This document shows, in pieces, positions 4,677 through 47,196 of a DNA stretch of 64,000 nt (the stretch's first letter is position 1; each line of letters opens with the position of its first letter). The notes beneath the pieces are model-generated. The model did not search any database. It saw only the letters and a program-made list of their open reading frames with translations, and was not told the DNA's origin. A program made the position numbers and the translations under genes. This DNA is from a phage: sequence record PZ452588.1, one strand, 5' to 3'.

Positions 4677-4827
4677 TAGTAGATAACAACACAAATGTTA
4701 AATATGCACACATACCCTGAGCTAAAGCTTGCGAAAACACACTGCTGGCATCAATACAGATAGTTAAAACACATGCTACTATCCAACAAATAAATGAAAT
4801 AACTCCTAATAATTTTGCAATATTCAT
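4669..4827 (-). CDS. ac: Small membrane protein (52 aa), candidate Ac (acriflavine sensitivity)
   Basis: Hand-translated hydrophobic ORF with GAGG SD; position between 52 and stp as in T4. Confidence 0.45.
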   Translation of the reverse strand: MNIAKLLGVISFICWIVACVLTICIDASSVFSQALAQGMCAYLTFVLLSTND

Positions 4828-4834
4828 ATTTTCC

Positions 4835-4915
4835 TCACTGGCGTCCGAAGACGCCTTTAGTTTTAAGATTATTACGATAGAACTGCATCACATGTTCGTT
4901 GTGGAAATTACTCAT
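4835..4915 (-). CDS. stp: Stp peptide (26 aa)
   Basis: Hand translation [26 protein letters not shown] matches recalled T4 Stp; ATG overlaps ndd stop. Confidence 0.75.
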
Positions 4916-5358
4916 TAATATGCCTGCAAAACGAATTTAAAGTTATCAGCCAACATACGGTTCATTTCTTCAAGTGTTTGATACTCAGAATGATGATTAC
5001 GAGTAAACGCCAAAGCTAACTGACCTTTACCAAATCCTGTCGTCAGAGGTTTCATCTTAGAAGCAGGCAGATAAAATACTGTGTATGGAACATTGTTATT
5101 TGCAATAGTACGCGCAAGTTGAGACCGGCGTTGACGAATATGACTTAGAACTGCGCTGAATCCTTGCTTAGAACGCTGATTACCCACATAAAATCGTGCG
5201 GATACGCATGAACCATCGAATTCATTTACTAAAAAGTAAAATCCAGGTTTAGATAAAATATCTTTATGCGGAGTTCCTAAAAACCATTCACCGCCCTTGA
5301 TTGTACCAATAACAGTAGCTCCTGCATTATTCAGATCAGTAACAGTCATGTATTTCAT
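4915..5358 (-). CDS. ndd: Nucleoid disruption protein Ndd
   Basis: ORF contains [42 protein letters not shown]..., as recalled for T4 Ndd; start set at internal ATG (track ORF extends to 5412). Confidence 0.75.
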
Positions 5359-5416
5359 ATTAATTTCCTCTAAATTATTTTCTACTCCAAGGCCGCATGA
5401 ATACGCGGCCATTAAA

Positions 5417-5632
5417 TTAATCGTCGCAGTCGACGCTCAATTCCCAAAACTCTTCTACGGTATAAGTTTCAGTATCATTTTCAATACAGAAACGTTCATT
5501 ACTGTTATTTGCTAAAGTAGCATTAACTGTCGGTTTCTCGCTAGTGCTCTTAAGAGGTGAAATACGAATTAACTGATCACCGTTATCTAAACAGAAAATT
5601 TCACCAACTTTTACATCTTTAAAGATTTTCAT
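5417..5632 (-). CDS. Hypothetical protein (71 aa)
   Basis: ORF downstream of early promoter region. Confidence 0.5.
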
Positions 5633-16770: not shown

Positions 16771-17045
16771 TAAACTTTCCTCGCTAAATCGCGAATTTGG
16801 CCTACAGTATAGTCTTGAATATAAACTTTATTAATAGGTTCATCAATAAATTTTGTCATAGATTCAATATCTTTTTGTATCTCTTCAAGACTGTATATTA
16901 TCTTTAAAGCTTTTTCGCGAATAGTAATATTTTCAGGACCAGAATTTTTCTCAATGACAGCTTTAACATTTGTCATAAGAGATTTAAACTGACACCAACT
17001 TAATTCAATCATTAATAACCGCCTTATAAAGATGGCTAATTTCAC
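16770..17045 (-). CDS. Hypothetical protein (91 aa), dexA.1 position
   Basis: ORF. Confidence 0.5.
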   Translation of the reverse strand: MKLAIFIRRLLMIELSWCQFKSLMTNVKAVIEKNSGPENITIREKALKIIYSLEEIQKDIESMTKFIDEPINKVYIQDYTVGQIRDLARKV

Positions 17046-17265
17046 CTAAAATGTAATCACTGATTGTGACAGTTTTCACTTCACCGCAAAAGAATTCTAA
17101 CGCAATCAAATCTCGTTCAATTTCTTCCAATTGAAGCATTAACTTTCCTGATTCAGTTTTCACATTTTTGCGATTTTTGCTATAAGCTATTTCATAAATT
17201 TCGCTAACTTTATCCTGAAGAAGATAAAACTGATCTTTAGTTATTTCCACGAATAGCTTCCTCAA
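17005..17265 (-). CDS. Hypothetical protein (86 aa), dexA.2 position
   Basis: ORF; weak resemblance to the preceding ORF. Confidence 0.5.
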   Translation of the reverse strand: MRKLFVEITKDQFYLLQDKVSEIYEIAYSKNRKNVKTESGKLMLQLEEIERDLIALEFFCGEVKTVTISDYILGEISHLYKAVIND

Positions 17266-17271
17266 ATTTAA

Positions 17272-18591
17272 TCATACATAAAACACATCATAACGACCAC
17301 GTGTTACACCAACATAAAGAAGCTGCTGAGCTAGTTCAGCATCTGCATAATGAATACAAGGCGTATAAATGAAAGCACGGTCTACAGACATGCCCTGCGC
17401 TTTATGGAATGTTGATGCAGGAAGTGCTTTCACTTTACTAAACTGTGATTTAGCATCCCAAAAATCACTCCACGGAGCTTTTCCGCCTTTATTCCAATTT
17501 TTGTAAGTTTCTGCCGTTTTACCTAAAAATAGGTTAAACTTATATAGCTCTTCATCAGATGAAATTATTTTAATCTTTTCACGATAATATTCATCATCGC
17601 CATAAGTTTCTACTGTTAAATCCCAATGACGAATTAGATATTCTCCAGGAACACCACGAGCTTTAACAAATGTTGATGTATACTCTGCTTCTATAATACG
17701 AACTAATTGTCCGTTATTAAAAATAATTTCTGACACAGGCTTTCCATCAATTTTATATGTTTTAATTAATGGTTCCTGCATTACAATAATTTCACCGACA
17801 ATAAAATCTTTATCAGTTTCAAAAATCTTTTTACGAATAATGCTATTTAACTTGTCAACAGATTTATTCGTAAATGCCATTACGCGATTTTCAAACAAAT
17901 CATCTAGTGATTTGACGATTGAAAAATAATTTACCATAAAATCACGTAAAGCGGTATCACCAGTAAATCCACGTACTCCATGCCCGTCAACAATTTTATC
18001 ATAAATCCACTTACCGTTACGAACGTCAGTAGCTACATCAATAATAGGAGCATTACTGCGTTTAACTTCAGTAAGTTCACACTGATAAAAATCTTTGTGT
18101 GTAAAGAATGGACTGATATAAGCAGTATTTTCTCCTGGATCAACAGGTCTAATTTGCTTATTATCCCCTATTCCAATTATAGTACACCACGGCGGGATAG
18201 TTGAAAGCAGAATTTTAAATAGCTTTCTATCATACATTGACACTTCATCGCAGATTAATACTCTGCATTTAGCTAAATCCGGTACTTCCTTCTGTTCAAA
18301 AAGAACATTTTCTTCATATGTTACCGGGTTAATTTTAAGAATACTATGAATAGTACTCGCTTCTTTCCCTGATAGTTTTGAAAGAATCTTTTTAGCCGCA
18401 TGTGTAGGAGCTGCTAAAATAATACCAGTTTCACCCGTAGATATTAAAGCTTCAATGATGAACTTAGTAAGAGTAGTCTTACCAGTACCAGCAGGTCCAT
18501 TAATAGTTACATGATGTTTCTTTTCTTTAATAGCCCTCATAACGATGTTAAAGGCATTTTTCTGGCCTTCTGTCAAATCATCAAATGTCAT
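17272..18591 (-). CDS. dda: Dda DNA helicase (SF1, 439 aa)
   Basis: 439-aa ORF with Walker A GPAGTGKTT; matches recalled T4 Dda. Confidence 0.92.
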   Translation of the reverse strand: MTFDDLTEGQKNAFNIVMRAIKEKKHHVTINGPAGTGKTTLTKFIIEALISTGETGIILAAPTHAAKKILSKLSGKEASTIHSILKINPVTYEENVLFEQKEVPDLAKCRVLICDEVSMYDRKLFKILLSTIPPWCTIIGIGDNKQIRPVDPGENTAYISPFFTHKDFYQCELTEVKRSNAPIIDVATDVRNGKWIYDKIVDGHGVRGFTGDTALRDFMVNYFSIVKSLDDLFENRVMAFTNKSVDKLNSIIRKKIFETDKDFIVGEIIVMQEPLIKTYKIDGKPVSEIIFNNGQLVRIIEAEYTSTFVKARGVPGEYLIRHWDLTVETYGDDEYYREKIKIISSDEELYKFNLFLGKTAETYKNWNKGGKAPWSDFWDAKSQFSKVKALPASTFHKAQGMSVDRAFIYTPCIHYADAELAQQLLYVGVTRGRYDVFYV

Positions 18592-18899
18592 CGGAAAGTC
18601 CCTGCAATTGGAATACTAACAATACGCCCAGTATCTAAAATTCGCTGATATAATCTTTGTGTGTCTACGTCAGGCTTAACATGTTTAACTTCTATTTTAT
18701 TAAACCAAAATTTACGTGGAGTCTCAACTAATCTTGGAATTCCCTTACCTAAAGCTAGTTGATACTGCTCTTTAAGAGTGGTAAATACTTTATCAGCAAT
18801 CTTCCATTCAAAAAATACAGCAGGACGATGTTCATCAAGCGGAACTGGTGCCGTAAATCCATCCTTATCTCTATACACTATCGCATATACATAAACCAT
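18588..18899 (-). CDS. Hypothetical protein (103 aa), dda.1 position
   Basis: ORF. Confidence 0.55.
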   Translation of the reverse strand: MVYVYAIVYRDKDGFTAPVPLDEHRPAVFFEWKIADKVFTTLKEQYQLALGKGIPRLVETPRKFWFNKIEVKHVKPDVDTQRLYQRILDTGRIVSIPIAGTFR

Positions 18900-18900
18900 A

Positions 18901-19647
18901 TTATCCTCGGATAAGTTTAAAAATTGAACAATTCAGCGGATATCCTCTTTTCAGTTTAAGTTTATCAATAAATGATAAGTTTTGAAACCGCTCTACGCCT
19001 TGAATAATTTTATCACACATATCATATTGCATTTCTGCTTCTGACAACTTTTTCACAATTTTCCAATCCGAACCTTTAAGAAGAACGTTCAGTTTAACAA
19101 CTTCAGCGCCTTCTGCTATACGAGAACCATCAATACGAGCTTTAAGTGCTACAATAGTTAATTTAATATCAGCGGTTTGTTTTGATTTAGAAAGCTGTGA
19201 AATGTGTTCAATTCGGTTTTCACGTTTTTTCTGTATAGCTTTAATTTGATTATAGGTCTTTTTGATTTTAGCCCATTTCTTTTCATCTAAATTTAGTTTA
19301 TGAACTTTTTTCGCAGATGAACGACCAATTCGCAAAGCAAATAAATCACGCTTTTCAATCAACTCCTCTAAAGTATAATCAGAACGAAATGTATTATACT
19401 TTTTCTTTACTGCAATAACATTCCCTTTAATGTATCCAATGTTATTATCAAAACGTTCTAATGATAATTTCTCTCCTTCAATACGATTATCAAAAGGTTC
19501 TCCCGAGTAAGCACAAACTTTTTGATCTAAAATGTTCTTAATGTAATTGAAGTCTAAGTTAAAATCTTTAGAACGTCTTTTTGCAGATGCCTGAGTGTGC
19601 TCTAAACGACGTTTAATTTTACGAATTTGATTATTAGACAGTTTCAT
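18901..19647 (-). CDS. srd: Probable Srd (248 aa)
   Basis: Basic 248-aa ORF at T4 srd position between dda.1 and modA. Confidence 0.55.
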   Translation of the reverse strand: MKLSNNQIRKIKRRLEHTQASAKRRSKDFNLDFNYIKNILDQKVCAYSGEPFDNRIEGEKLSLERFDNNIGYIKGNVIAVKKKYNTFRSDYTLEELIEKRDLFALRIGRSSAKKVHKLNLDEKKWAKIKKTYNQIKAIQKKRENRIEHISQLSKSKQTADIKLTIVALKARIDGSRIAEGAEVVKLNVLLKGSDWKIVKKLSEAEMQYDMCDKIIQGVERFQNLSFIDKLKLKRGYPLNCSIFKLIRG

Positions 19648-23463: not shown

Positions 23464-23503
23464 ATTATTTATAATAAATTCTCGCGGCTTTTAAGACGAG
23501 CTG

Positions 23504-24022
23504 TTAATAACCTCGGTCTTGACGAGCGAAATTTTCAGCATTTTTCAGATAATAAAGTTTAAAGATTTCTTCAGCTGTAAGACCAAGACCCTGGAACATA
23601 TTCAGAACGAAATGAAGAATATCAATCATTTCAAATTTAATTTCTAACTGGTCTTGCGGAGACAAATCAGTAATCAGAGTTTCACGACGTTCACCATGCT
23701 GTGACTTCCAAGGTTTCCATACAGCAGATGCATCTTTTTCGCCATTGCTCATACCACCAAGAGAAGTCAGAAGTTCGCGGAATTCATCATCAATATAATC
23801 TTTCTGATTACGCAGCCAATCAACAACTTCACCTGCAGTAGCCAAATCATCAGGATGACGGTTATATTCAGGTTTATCTTTAGCTAAACGAATCTGTAGA
23901 GATTTCTGCATATCAAGCATTACCTGCAGCGGGTCTTTTTCATCACCGAGAATATCCCAATATTCATTTTGAGCTTTATCAGCGCCTTCGATCAGTTGAC
24001 TACATTCGTTGAAATGTGGCAT
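23504..24022 (-). CDS. 56: dCTPase/dUTPase gp56 (172 aa)
   Basis: 172-aa ORF at T4 gene 56 position and size. Confidence 0.85.
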   Translation of the reverse strand: MPHFNECSQLIEGADKAQNEYWDILGDEKDPLQVMLDMQKSLQIRLAKDKPEYNRHPDDLATAGEVVDWLRNQKDYIDDEFRELLTSLGGMSNGEKDASAVWKPWKSQHGERRETLITDLSPQDQLEIKFEMIDILHFVLNMFQGLGLTAEEIFKLYYLKNAENFARQDRGY

Positions 24023-24095
24023 GTTATTTTTCCTTTCAATTCATGGGTTAGTAGATTAATTATACAATAAATATATAAAGCAATAAGGAGGACAT

Positions 24096-24296
24096 ATGGT
24101 ACAAAAATTAATGGCACTTGTTAATGCCATAAAAGGTAATAAAAAACGTATAGCTTTTACTATTTCTGCTATGGTAGGAATTTTACTCTGGAACTTTATT
24201 CTATCACCTGTTGCAATTGCACATGGTATTAATATTCCAATAGTTACTCTTGATACATTTGTAGATTTAGCATTTGCTTTAGTTGGGTTGATTTAA
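24096..24296 (+). CDS. Small putative membrane protein (66 aa) on the opposite strand
   Basis: Strong SD AAGGAGG 4 nt before ATG; two hydrophobic segments; sits in the otherwise empty 56-61 interval. Confidence 0.45.
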   Translation: MVQKLMALVNAIKGNKKRIAFTISAMVGILLWNFILSPVAIAHGINIPIVTLDTFVDLAFALVGLI

Positions 24297-25321
24297 ATCT
24301 TAGCATATTTAGATAACCGCATTTTAGCCATCAACCCCTGGGCAATATTATTTTTCATATATTCCATAATTTGTTCAGGGGTTGCACCTTCCTTTCTAAT
24401 CATATCATTGACATCTTTTGATTTCCAGGGAGATTTATCCCAAAACATAATCCTTTCTCCTGCATCAACTAATTTAGTAATTCGCTTAATAGTGTCAGGG
24501 TGACGAGGTTCATTATCTAAAACCCACACTCGTCTATCTTTAAATGGAACAACTTCTAGGTCTAATTGACCACCCGTAATAGCTATACCATTTTCAATAA
24601 AAAGTGAATCTATAGGTCCTTCTAGAACATATACATCGCCATCTTTAACTCGTTCGACTCCATATATTTTTGTTGCCTCAGGATAAGCTTTAATGGTGAT
24701 ATATTTTTGAGGAGCATCTTTCTTTAATGCGCGTCCTTGAAAAGACTCAGCCTTTCCGTCAGCATTATAAATTGGAATAACAAGACGAGGCTCAGAAATT
24801 TCCTTTTTATATGTTCCCGGTGCTATGCTATTAACTAATTTAGGCCATTCGGTTGTAAACCAAAGATATTTCCATTTATCCTTTGGAATACAACGAGCTT
24901 TTACATATTTTATAATTGGATGGTCTTCCGCCAGTTTATCTAATCTAACACATGACGGAAGAGATTTAATTATTTTCTTCTCAGGTTGTTTAGGAAGTTC
25001 TTTAGGTTTTTCTACTGGACGACTTTTACCTTTTTCTTTTCTTATTTCAAAGATATACTCACGATATAAATCAGGTTCAAACTCCTTTAAATATATTCCG
25101 ATTGGTGCATGATAGTTACAGTTATAACAATGAATATTTCCTTCATTATTATCACCATAATACCATCCACGGGCTTTATTTTGGTCGGTTTTTGAATCTC
25201 CACAAACTGGGCATCTAAACCGTAATTTAAAAGTTGAACTATTATTTACTTGTGTGAATTTAGGTAAATGAGCTAATGCACGATACGCAAACTCATTATC
25301 AATCCAAGGTATTGATGACAT
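24293..25321 (-). CDS. 61: DNA primase gp61 (342 aa)
   Basis: N-terminal zinc ribbon CPVCGDSK...CYNCNYH plus TOPRIM region; 342 aa as T4 gp61. Confidence 0.92.
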   Translation of the reverse strand: MSSIPWIDNEFAYRALAHLPKFTQVNNSSTFKLRFRCPVCGDSKTDQNKARGWYYGDNNEGNIHCYNCNYHAPIGIYLKEFEPDLYREYIFEIRKEKGKSRPVEKPKELPKQPEKKIIKSLPSCVRLDKLAEDHPIIKYVKARCIPKDKWKYLWFTTEWPKLVNSIAPGTYKKEISEPRLVIPIYNADGKAESFQGRALKKDAPQKYITIKAYPEATKIYGVERVKDGDVYVLEGPIDSLFIENGIAITGGQLDLEVVPFKDRRVWVLDNEPRHPDTIKRITKLVDAGERIMFWDKSPWKSKDVNDMIRKEGATPEQIMEYMKNNIAQGLMAKMRLSKYAKI

Positions 25322-25323
25322 TT

Positions 25324-25488
25324 TTACTCTTCTTTTTCTTTAGATTCCTCTTTTTTCTTTTTAGGAATCTGTTCAGGACCTTTATTTACCACAGCACCTG
25401 ATGTTGTTCCAGTAGAGATATTTTCAGGATTACCACCTGAATCTCCAGCAACCATATCTTCTTTGATAAATTCTTTATATGTTTTCAT
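25324..25488 (-). CDS. Small hypothetical protein (54 aa), 61.1 position; not in ORF track
   Basis: Hand translation MKTYKEFIKEDMVAGDSGGNPENISTGTTSGAVVNKGPEQIPKKKKEESKEKEE; stop 3 nt before gene 61 ATG. Confidence 0.45.
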   Translation of the reverse strand: MKTYKEFIKEDMVAGDSGGNPENISTGTTSGAVVNKGPEQIPKKKKEESKEKEE

Positions 25489-25489
25489 A

Positions 25490-26116
25490 TTAACCTCTAT
25501 TCATAAAAGCATTAAAAATTTGGTCATCAATAGAAACATTTACTTTAGACTGTTTTTCTGATGGTAATTCATATCCACATATTACAATTTTGTGATCAAT
25601 ATCAAAATACACAGAAGCAATATGATTAATGATGTTTTCAGTAAAATCTAAATCAACATCAATATCTTTTTGACCACAGTCCAAAGGATAAATAATGCGA
25701 GTAATTCGATTATCTTTAACAAATATTCCACCGACATACTCTGTGCTGCGTTTAAAGTCTACACGCCGACGAAATGAAAAATATTCAGGCTCTCTATGAG
25801 CTCGGCTCATAGGACACAACGAGTAACTAGAATAAGAGATGTCAAATCCTACGCCTTCGATATGAGCCAAAGTGTTATGATTAAACCAATTATAATCGTA
25901 CGCCAAATCCATTAGATTATAATATGTAAAAGGCACCGGATTAACATCATTAGTCACAAGCATGTAATTAGCAACTGCTATAATTTCATTGTTTTTAACG
26001 AATACAAACCGTGATTGATGCGAATGGCCTGGACCCGCGTTTTCACGATTAATGATATAACACTGGGCACCTTTATATTTGTATGTATCTTTACACTTGT
26101 GCATTTGATAGAGCAT
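25490..26116 (-). CDS. Hypothetical protein (208 aa), 61.2 position (possible AdfA-type anti-defence protein)
   Basis: ORF at the 61.2 position; functional label is by position only. Confidence 0.5.
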   Translation of the reverse strand: MLYQMHKCKDTYKYKGAQCYIINRENAGPGHSHQSRFVFVKNNEIIAVANYMLVTNDVNPVPFTYYNLMDLAYDYNWFNHNTLAHIEGVGFDISYSSYSLCPMSRAHREPEYFSFRRRVDFKRSTEYVGGIFVKDNRITRIIYPLDCGQKDIDVDLDFTENIINHIASVYFDIDHKIVICGYELPSEKQSKVNVSIDDQIFNAFMNRG

Positions 26117-46913: not shown

Positions 46914-47196
46914 GAGAAATAATTCCTTGGTAAGCCCAATAAGGAGGATTAACAGAATCCTCACCAGAGTTTTCTTCAGGAAAATAAACCTGGATAACGA
47001 AGCCGGATTCATCAAAGGTGAAATAAGTAGTAGGCAGTTCACCTAACAAATCGGCACGAGCGTTGATTTCTTCGAGGTCTTGTTCACGTCCAGCCCAGAA
47101 GCTTGGGTTCAGACTACATTCATAGAAATAATAGTCATTACCGAACATATCAAAACCATTCCAACTCTCTACTACATACCGCTCAAAACTAATCAT
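46885..47196 (-). CDS. Hypothetical protein (103 aa)
   Basis: ORF. Confidence 0.5.
   Translation of the reverse strand: MISFERYVVESWNGFDMFGNDYYFYECSLNPSFWAGREQDLEEINARADLLGELPTTYFTFDESGFVIQVYFPEENSGEDSVNPPYWAYQGIISRGTKLELKE

Follow-up and report, generated by a model that had tools for sequence, protein, structure and literature searches.

A conserved small gene convergent with the primase gene of T4-like phages, likely encoding a late-expressed membrane protein

The 66-codon open reading frame (ORF) found between genes 56 and 61 of the phage analyzed here is, as judged by sequence comparison, a conserved Tevenvirinae gene that has already been annotated in related phages and that belongs to a family without an assigned function. 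We consider it likely that this gene, which sits beside the primase gene and coexists with dam in T4 and T2, is transcribed late and makes an inner-membrane protein. A preliminary description of the locus had placed the ORF "instead" of the dam adenine methyltransferase gene of T4. That reading is refuted, since T4 (63/66 aa identical) and T2 (66/66 aa identical) carry the same ORF beside dam.

Organization of the 56–61 interval

The window, which is the whole 64-kb stretch of phage DNA that was analyzed, comprises an early-gene block of a Tequatrovirus and is ~96–97% identical to VEc74, RB32, RB51, and AR1. The 66-aa ATG ORF occupies positions 24096–24296 on the plus strand. It is flanked on the left by gene 56 (dCTPase, 172 aa; 23504–24022, minus strand) and is convergent with gene 61 (DNA primase, 342 aa; 24293–25321, minus strand), the gap between these two genes being 270 bp. 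A Shine-Dalgarno (SD) sequence, AAGGAGG, can be read at 24085–24091 on the plus strand and is followed by a 4-nt spacer, ACAT, and then by the ATG. The ORF coordinates, the SD with its 4-nt spacer, and the ~270-bp gap given in the preliminary description are confirmed. At its 3′ end, the TAA of the ORF and that of gene 61 share 4 nt (24293–24296) within the sequence TTTAAA. The same tail-to-tail stop overlap is observed in T4, T2, F31, the second VR26 copy, CkP1, and L030; the exception is EAWsc9, in which a 118-nt gap separates the ORF from gene 61. Sequence comparison reveals a strong SD upstream of all orthologs.

Plus-strand genes are rare in this part of the genome, as had been remarked: the curated genome of RB32 has only two in its first 50 kb, ORF030w and a gene for a mobB-like endonuclease. 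On the minus strand, a pattern scan finds a terminator-like hairpin, followed by UUAAUUUUUGU, at 24111–24130, inside the 5′ end of the ORF, with a fold energy of -8.9 kcal/mol and a z-score of -2.28. This hairpin could, with some uncertainty, serve as a weak terminator of transcripts leaving gene 61.

Family membership and coding evidence

Annotated orthologs of the ORF include T4T dam.1, RB32ORF030w (labeled "similar to RB69ORF029w"), RB69ORF029w, and AR1_033. Hundreds of other records label it "hypothetical protein", and the T4 RefSeq record, NC_000866.4, leaves it unannotated. The protein matches phrog_2024 (unknown function) with an E-value of 6.3e-31, residues 2–66 aligning with positions 1–65 of the 65-position profile. 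Identity within this dam.1 family is 89–100% among Tequatrovirus members and ~55% to Mosigvirus, and the length, position, orientation, SD, and gene 61 stop overlap of the family are all as in the window, with no substantive difference. As in other members, genes 56 and 61 flank the window ORF and are read from the other strand, and the stop codon of the ORF overlaps that of the primase gene. By tblastn, the ORF is present in 699 phage records, in ~503 of them at an identity of at least 80%. Searched with the family profile, 1.84 billion representative proteins yielded only 19 clusters, all of 45–82 aa, and a locus search with the single window protein returned only five close loci. Scans of Pfam and NCBIfam with the window protein and with family alignments gave no significant match; hits to Borrelia P13/porin, MASE7, Syndecan, Ldr_toxin, and Mlo at E-values of 0.02–0.13 were treated as hydrophobic noise. 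Literature searches on this gene under the name dam.1 returned nothing, and searches for T4 ribosome profiling or for transcription start site (TSS) and antisense literature returned nothing relevant to it.

The preliminary description regarded the ORF as a credible gene, and both its substitution pattern and the conservation of its protein across genera bear this out. Among 15 distinct Tequatrovirus sequences, pN/pS is 0.196 in the ORF frame, the lowest of the six frames, with values of 0.28–2.3 in the others; 15 of the 29 variable sites fall at third codon positions, and almost all amino acid replacements are of the I/V, A/T/S, or K/R type. At 20–55% identity, where the DNA is no longer alignable, orthologs keep the length (60–70 aa), the start, the SD, the stop position, a basic N-terminal segment, and, after that segment, the family motif [WY]-[ND]-x4-P-x5-G-x3-P-x-[IVLM]-x2-[ED]. 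The core of this motif, W-N-x4-P-x5-G-x3-P, persists down to ~20% identity in several Tevenvirinae genera, always in a gene convergent with the primase gene. The window protein carries the motif residues Trp32, Asn33, Pro38, Gly44, Pro48, and Asp53. In an alignment of 26 sequences, Pro38 is invariant and Asn33, Gly44, and Pro48 are each at least 90% conserved, and family alignments extending to ~20% identity retain these four residues together with Trp32. By these comparative measures, the ORF is a real protein-coding gene under purifying selection, far beyond what a chance ORF would display.

Presence and absence of dam

As stated in the preliminary description, T4 carries dam between genes 56 and 61. 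In NC_000866.4, dam (16846–17625) and gene 61 (17935–18963) are separated by a 309-bp unannotated gap, and this gap holds the same 66-codon ORF, at 17738–17938 on the plus strand. In T2, dam and a 181-aa ORF lie upstream of the identical protein. In both phages, dam is on the gene 56 side of the ORF, and the 4-nt overlap with the gene 61 stop codon is the same as in the window. The same ORF and spacing are thus present in dam-positive relatives, which the preliminary description had itself named as the observation that would refute its claim. The sole difference between the window and the T4 and T2 loci is that the window has no dam cassette upstream of the ORF.

The reported lack of a methyltransferase or a DPPY motif in the window holds. 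A Dam-family adenine methyltransferase is recognized by a length of ~260 aa, a DPPY catalytic motif, and an AdoMet-binding motif; here, the interval is just 270 bp, DPPY does not occur within the 64-kb window, and a tblastn search of the window with the Dam proteins of T4 and T2 reaches an E-value of 0.68 at best. Only two sequences in the window match [DNS]PP[YFW]: NPPY, in an ORF of 107 aa, and SPPF, in one of 90 aa. Relocation of dam to another site in dam-less relatives was considered and is rejected for RB32, the complete genome of which has no Dam homolog by whole-genome tblastn (best E-value ~1) and no annotated methyltransferase. The T4/T2 Dam cassette, which encodes a GATC N6-adenine methyltransferase and occupies the 56–61 interval in those phages, is unrelated to the ORF and is absent from both the window and RB32.

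In a comparison of 16 Tequatrovirus copies, the DNA preceding the ORF takes one of three forms: an empty one, a T4-type one with dam, and a T2-type one with dam and the 181-aa ORF. Homology between the T4-type and T2-type arrangements starts exactly at the (G/A)ATAAATA box before the ORF, and the gene 56 middle promoter is common to the dam-less and T4 arrangements. On the basis of these two boundaries, the difference between the window and T4 is the presence or absence of a ~0.9-kb cassette between the gene 56 promoter and the promoter and SD of the ORF, with no replacement of one gene by another. The slot between the gene 56 promoter and the ORF is empty in this phage and in most Tequatrovirus, as well as in Mosigvirus (RB69, F31) and Gaprivervirus (VR26, EAWsc9), in which the order is 56, ORF, 61 with no dam there. 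In Karamvirus CkP1 and in an uncultured T4-like phage, the slot contains other small ORFs and no dam. T4-type Dam is found by tblastn at an identity of at least 90% in ~182 records, as compared with the ~503 records for the ORF, and dam-less Tequatrovirus are therefore the majority; dam is missing from roughly two thirds of Tequatrovirus records. The absence of dam is a common cassette polymorphism among T4-like phages. From the distribution among phages, an empty or variable slot with the ORF fixed beside gene 61 looks ancestral, with dam having been inserted in the T4 and T2 lineages.

Promoter and expression signals

The T4 late-promoter consensus is TATAAATA, located at -13 to -6. A late-promoter-like box, AATAAATA, is found at 24066–24073 on the plus strand, 22 nt before the ATG of the ORF, and matches this consensus at seven of eight positions. 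Such sequences are scarce in the window: TATAAATA occurs once, as compared with ~10 expected, and that copy precedes soc, a late gene; ATAAATA occurs five times, as compared with ~40 expected (~8-fold depletion), and one of the five copies is the one at 24067–24073, 22 nt before the ATG. In each of the three Tequatrovirus arrangements, as in Mosigvirus, Gaprivervirus, and the uncultured T4-like phage, an NATAAATA box precedes the ATG by 14–22 nt; the upstream DNA of these lineages is otherwise unrelated. The sole exception among the T4-like lineages examined is Karamvirus CkP1, which has TAAATA only. The box reads AATAAATA in the window; T4 and T2 share GATAAATA, with G at -13, and Gaprivervirus has CATAAATA, with C at that position. 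The AATAAATA variant is also the one that stands before t, 49, 15, and inh, all late genes, in RB32. A published comparison describes low conservation of the T at -13, with A or T common at this position in most of the T4-like phages that were compared (PMC1524935); for G or C at -13, no documented activity was found in the literature examined. A sigma-70 early promoter for the ORF was considered and is rejected, since a pattern scan of the plus strand finds no sigma-70-like site upstream.

From the box and its placement, we infer a late, gp55-dependent plus-strand transcript that would start at ~24079 (T4 ~17722) and have a 17-nt leader. Similar to the T4 late genes that depend on gp55, gp33, and gp45 (t, e, soc, and 49), the ORF has a TATAAATA-type box 13–30 nt before its ATG, a short predicted leader, and a strong SD, and it is transcribed on the clockwise strand, as are most T4 late genes. 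Unlike those genes, it stands alone within an early-gene block, and its late expression is a prediction from sequence.

The plus-strand late box overlaps a promoter of the opposite strand. The middle (MotA-dependent) promoter of gene 56 spans 24059–24084 on the minus strand and is composed of a MotA box, ATTGCTTTA, at 24084–24076, an 11-nt spacer, and a -10 element, TATAAT, at 24064–24059; the late box falls within the spacer. This promoter aligns with the T4 56–dam intergenic region and is homologous to T4 P(M)16.53 at oriA, for which X01416.1 annotates a mot-box and a -10 at the equivalent T4 position. Downstream of the ORF, a pattern scan of the plus strand finds no terminator-like site in 24296–25600, and the late transcript would therefore run antisense into gene 61. 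A dRNA-seq preprint on T4 gives 150 phage TSSs, of which 22 are antisense (bioRxiv 10.1101/2024.04.04.588121).

The predicted membrane protein

The ORF product had been described as a hydrophobic protein of two segments, and Kyte-Doolittle analysis (19-residue window) agrees, with peaks of 2.01 at residues 23–41 and 1.87 at residues 47–66. The clear hydropathy span comprises residues ~19–42, and the second hydrophobic stretch, 47–66, contains two Asp residues. Five of the N-terminal 18 residues are Lys or Arg, whereas residues 43–66 include no Lys or Arg and two Asp, the C terminus reading ...LAFALVGLI. AlphaFold2, run with the family alignment, predicts helices at residues 2–14, 16–42, and 52–63, with a mean pLDDT of 78.5. 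The most likely product is a small inner-membrane protein, expressed late. The N terminus is likely cytoplasmic, with the C-terminal helix either being periplasmic and interfacial or forming a second span. A profile search of the PDB gave only acetylcholine-receptor transmembrane helices at an E-value of ~1, and a Foldseek comparison with viral structures gave only the family itself. A three-helix model of 66 residues carries no fold information.

In the proposed model, the gene has its ancestral place between 56 and 61, where it meets the primase gene tail-to-tail, and would be transcribed late from the gp55-type promoter AATAAATA, with a start at ~24079, a short leader, and a strong SD. The product would insert in the inner membrane with its basic N terminus in the cytoplasm and residues ~19–42 spanning the bilayer, and the short C-terminal helix would re-enter the membrane or span it a second time. 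The conservation of Asn33, Pro38, Gly44, and Pro48 suggests that the first two of these residues, which would be intramembrane, and the last two, which would be in the loop, may mediate helix–helix contacts, whether between copies of the protein or between it and a partner. In addition, the late transcript would extend antisense into gene 61.

Remote homologs and the relationship to holins

Remote members of the family, with E-values of 1e-4 to 1e-6 against the family profile and of 1e-9 to 1e-11 against phrog_2024, are found in other phages and also in E. coli, in a prophage that is inserted in yegD. Their surroundings are late genes, including those for Endonuclease VII, a minor-tail-protein homolog, and T4-type lysozyme; one remote member precedes a RelA/SpoT gene. 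In some cases, the homolog lies 1–3 kb from the T4-type lysozyme gene with tail-like genes in between. These neighborhoods fit late expression; they are mixed and do not form clean lysis cassettes. The companions of the remote homologs (~180 aa and ~106 aa) were considered as lysis proteins and rejected, the 180-aa companion matching a minor tail protein PHROG.

The similarity of the family to holins is weak and unproven. Two remote members match holin phrog_3427 with sub-threshold E-values of 5e-4 and 2e-3, three members match the Pfam family GTA_holin_3TM (PF11351) at an E-value of 0.03, below its curated threshold, and hhalign aligns the family profile with the 81-aa "GTA-like holin" of Pseudanabaena phage Pan1 at a probability of 86.8%. 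The copies in OE5505 and EAWsc9 bear the labels "holin" or "holin family protein", which are unreferenced automatic or submitter annotations. For the window protein itself, scans of the phrog, Pfam, and NCBIfam collections give no match to a holin model.

The ORF product shares with small holins (class II holins and pinholins, and the GTA-release holins of PF11351 and phrog_3427) its small size, a basic N terminus, one or two hydrophobic helices, and probable late expression, and the weak profile similarity extends over a W-x-[FY]-x3-P-x-A helix. As in holins, at least one transmembrane domain is predicted in a small protein. A charged C-terminal tail is typical of holins. Unlike small holins, the ORF product has no hydrophilic, highly charged C-terminal domain, no match to a curated holin model reaches threshold, and in T4-like phages the gene is adjacent to neither endolysin nor spanin genes. 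In RB32, for instance, the ORF is at 15.7 kb, e at 62.6 kb, pseT.2/pseT.3 at 133 kb, and t at 156.6 kb. T is the known, essential holin of T4, and the T4 antiholins are RI and RIII. Since T4 t mutants do not lyse, the ORF product cannot be a sufficient holin.

Function and alternative explanations

Our best guess, offered tentatively, is that the protein is an accessory envelope factor or a lysis-stage membrane factor that is distantly related to small holins and is not the main holin. That it might instead be a true holin or pinholin, a lesion-forming trigger of lysis, is unlikely. The annotation labels, the sub-threshold model matches, the hhalign result, and the occasional proximity of remote members to a T4-type lysozyme gene would favor such an assignment, but phrog_2024 itself is classified as of unknown function, the C terminus lacks the charged domain, tens of kb separate the gene from e and t in T4-like phages, and T4 already has T in this capacity. 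It is very unlikely that the main function is exerted by the RNA, with a late antisense transcript shutting off primase gene 61 and the peptide being secondary. The ORF is convergent with gene 61 and overlaps its stop codon in nearly every T4-like lineage examined, and the plus strand has no terminator-like site from 24296 to 25600; however, the protein sequence is under purifying selection, a motif of the protein is conserved, and no primase gene lies opposite the remote members in other phages. An antisense role and a protein role are not mutually exclusive.

The interval contains the gene 56 middle promoter and the minus-strand terminator-like hairpin, and the T4 RefSeq record has no annotation for the ORF, all of which would favor the view that the ORF is untranslated and that its conservation is a by-product of overlapping regulatory DNA (a gene 61 terminator, the gene 56 promoter, and oriA). 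This explanation is highly improbable given that the substitutions follow the codon pattern of the ORF, that the motif, length, start, SD, and stop are maintained beyond the range of DNA alignability, and that VR26 (Gaprivervirus) has two tandem paralogs. Least tenable, and already refuted, is the proposal that the ORF replaced dam, as a lineage-specific insertion in the dam slot that perhaps compensates for the loss of Dam. Although dam is indeed missing from the interval in which T4 has it, T4 and T2 carry both genes with the same gene 61 junction; Mosigvirus, Gaprivervirus, Karamvirus, and another T4-like phage have the ORF in the equivalent position and lack dam at this locus; and the 66-aa hydrophobic protein has no methyltransferase motifs. 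The conserved gene beside the primase gene, present with or without dam, remains our preferred reading.

Implications for T4-like phages

The gene is already known, its annotation dating back to the RB69 and RB32 genomes, and the presence or absence of dam is routine among T-even phages. What the present comparison brings out is that NC_000866.4 omits a conserved gene under selection that hundreds of relatives annotate, and screens and omics analyses built on that annotation consequently miss it. The ORF belongs, moreover, to the very small set of probable late genes within the early region, and the location of its late box inside the spacer of the oriA-associated gene 56 middle promoter makes the locus a compact system in which to study overlapping promoters and the small membrane proteins of T4. 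A more specific and rather doubtful extension is that, in T-even phages, the protein is a holin-derived, late inner-membrane factor by which the timing of lysis, lysis inhibition, or the integrity of the envelope is adjusted, with a transcript that might also silence primase by antisense. If the lysis- or envelope-tuning reading is true, the gene would represent a component that was missed by classical T4 genetics and that is absent from the T4 reference annotation.

Distribution and Annotation of the dam.1 Family

The 66-residue ORF between genes 56 and 61 (24096-24296, plus strand) belongs to the conserved dam.1 family, whose T4 member occupies the plus strand at T4 17738-17938 (4739-4939 of the T4 locus, L001) and has no annotation in the RefSeq record, NC_000866.4. 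In contrast, the gene is annotated in T4T (HM137666), where it is named dam.1. The records of T2 (LC348380) and PP01 likewise leave the family gene without annotation. In the Gaprivervirus VR26 (KP007362.1), two tandem paralogs of 65 and 66 residues are encoded on the plus strand (positions 1995-2192 and 2201-2401 of locus L006), with approximately 22% identity between the pair; the type represented by the second paralog is also carried by the Klebsiella T4-like phages Potts1 and Marfa. A remote family member of 70 residues is found on the E. coli chromosome (5302-5514 of locus L035), where it is the final gene of a prophage that resides in yegD beside alkA (L025/L035). This prophage also encodes a T4-type lysozyme, a DUF2730 protein, a GIY-YIG nuclease, and tail-tip genes, and the full segment is present in only 25 of the 5426 complete E. 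coli genomes.

The dam Cassette of T2 and GATC Content

In T2 (LC348380.1, locus L003), a 181-residue ORF, T2_032, lies on the minus strand between dam and the dam.1-family ORF (1865-2410), and the ORF of this T2-type cassette is also present in Salmonella phage SG1 (650-1213 of locus L017). T2_032 contains a PD-(D/E)xK-like motif, D-x13-EIK, and its Pfam matches, all sub-threshold, are to the DpnII (GATC) restriction endonuclease (E = 0.0096), RE_BanI, and HSDR_N. T2_032 may be a nuclease partner or the leftover of a GATC restriction-modification pair. The window, a segment without dam, contains 66 GATC sites versus the approximately 200 expected from base composition alone. An NPPY tetrapeptide occurs at 46950 on the minus strand, within a 107-residue reading frame; this frame is shorter than a methyltransferase would require and shows no similarity to Dam.

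Overlapping Signals and the Late-Promoter Core

Gene 56 has a MotA-type middle promoter (24059-24084, minus strand) that is homologous to the primer promoter of oriA in T4, and the spacer of this gene 56 promoter contains, on the opposite strand, the late-promoter-like box of the ORF (24066-24073). In T4, the late box of the dam.1 gene instead overlaps the -35 element of P(E)17.40, the early promoter for dam (X01416.1). Within the 5' end of the ORF, the minus strand can form an 8-bp hairpin followed by UUAAUUUUUGU (24111-24130; -8.9 kcal/mol, z = -2.3); downstream of gene 61, this structure could act as a weak terminator.

Across the whole window, TATAAATA occurs once versus approximately 10 expected copies, at 23466-23473 on the minus strand, the soc promoter. 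ATAAATA occurs five times versus approximately 40 expected, and the late-promoter core copies in the whole-window count lie at 2286(-), 23466(-), 24067(+), 25688(+), and 50314(-). The copy at 25688 is immediately 5' of the ATG of a 34-residue ORF antisense to 61.2, and a matching arrangement is observed at position 17704 of RB32. This early region is strongly purged of the late-promoter core.
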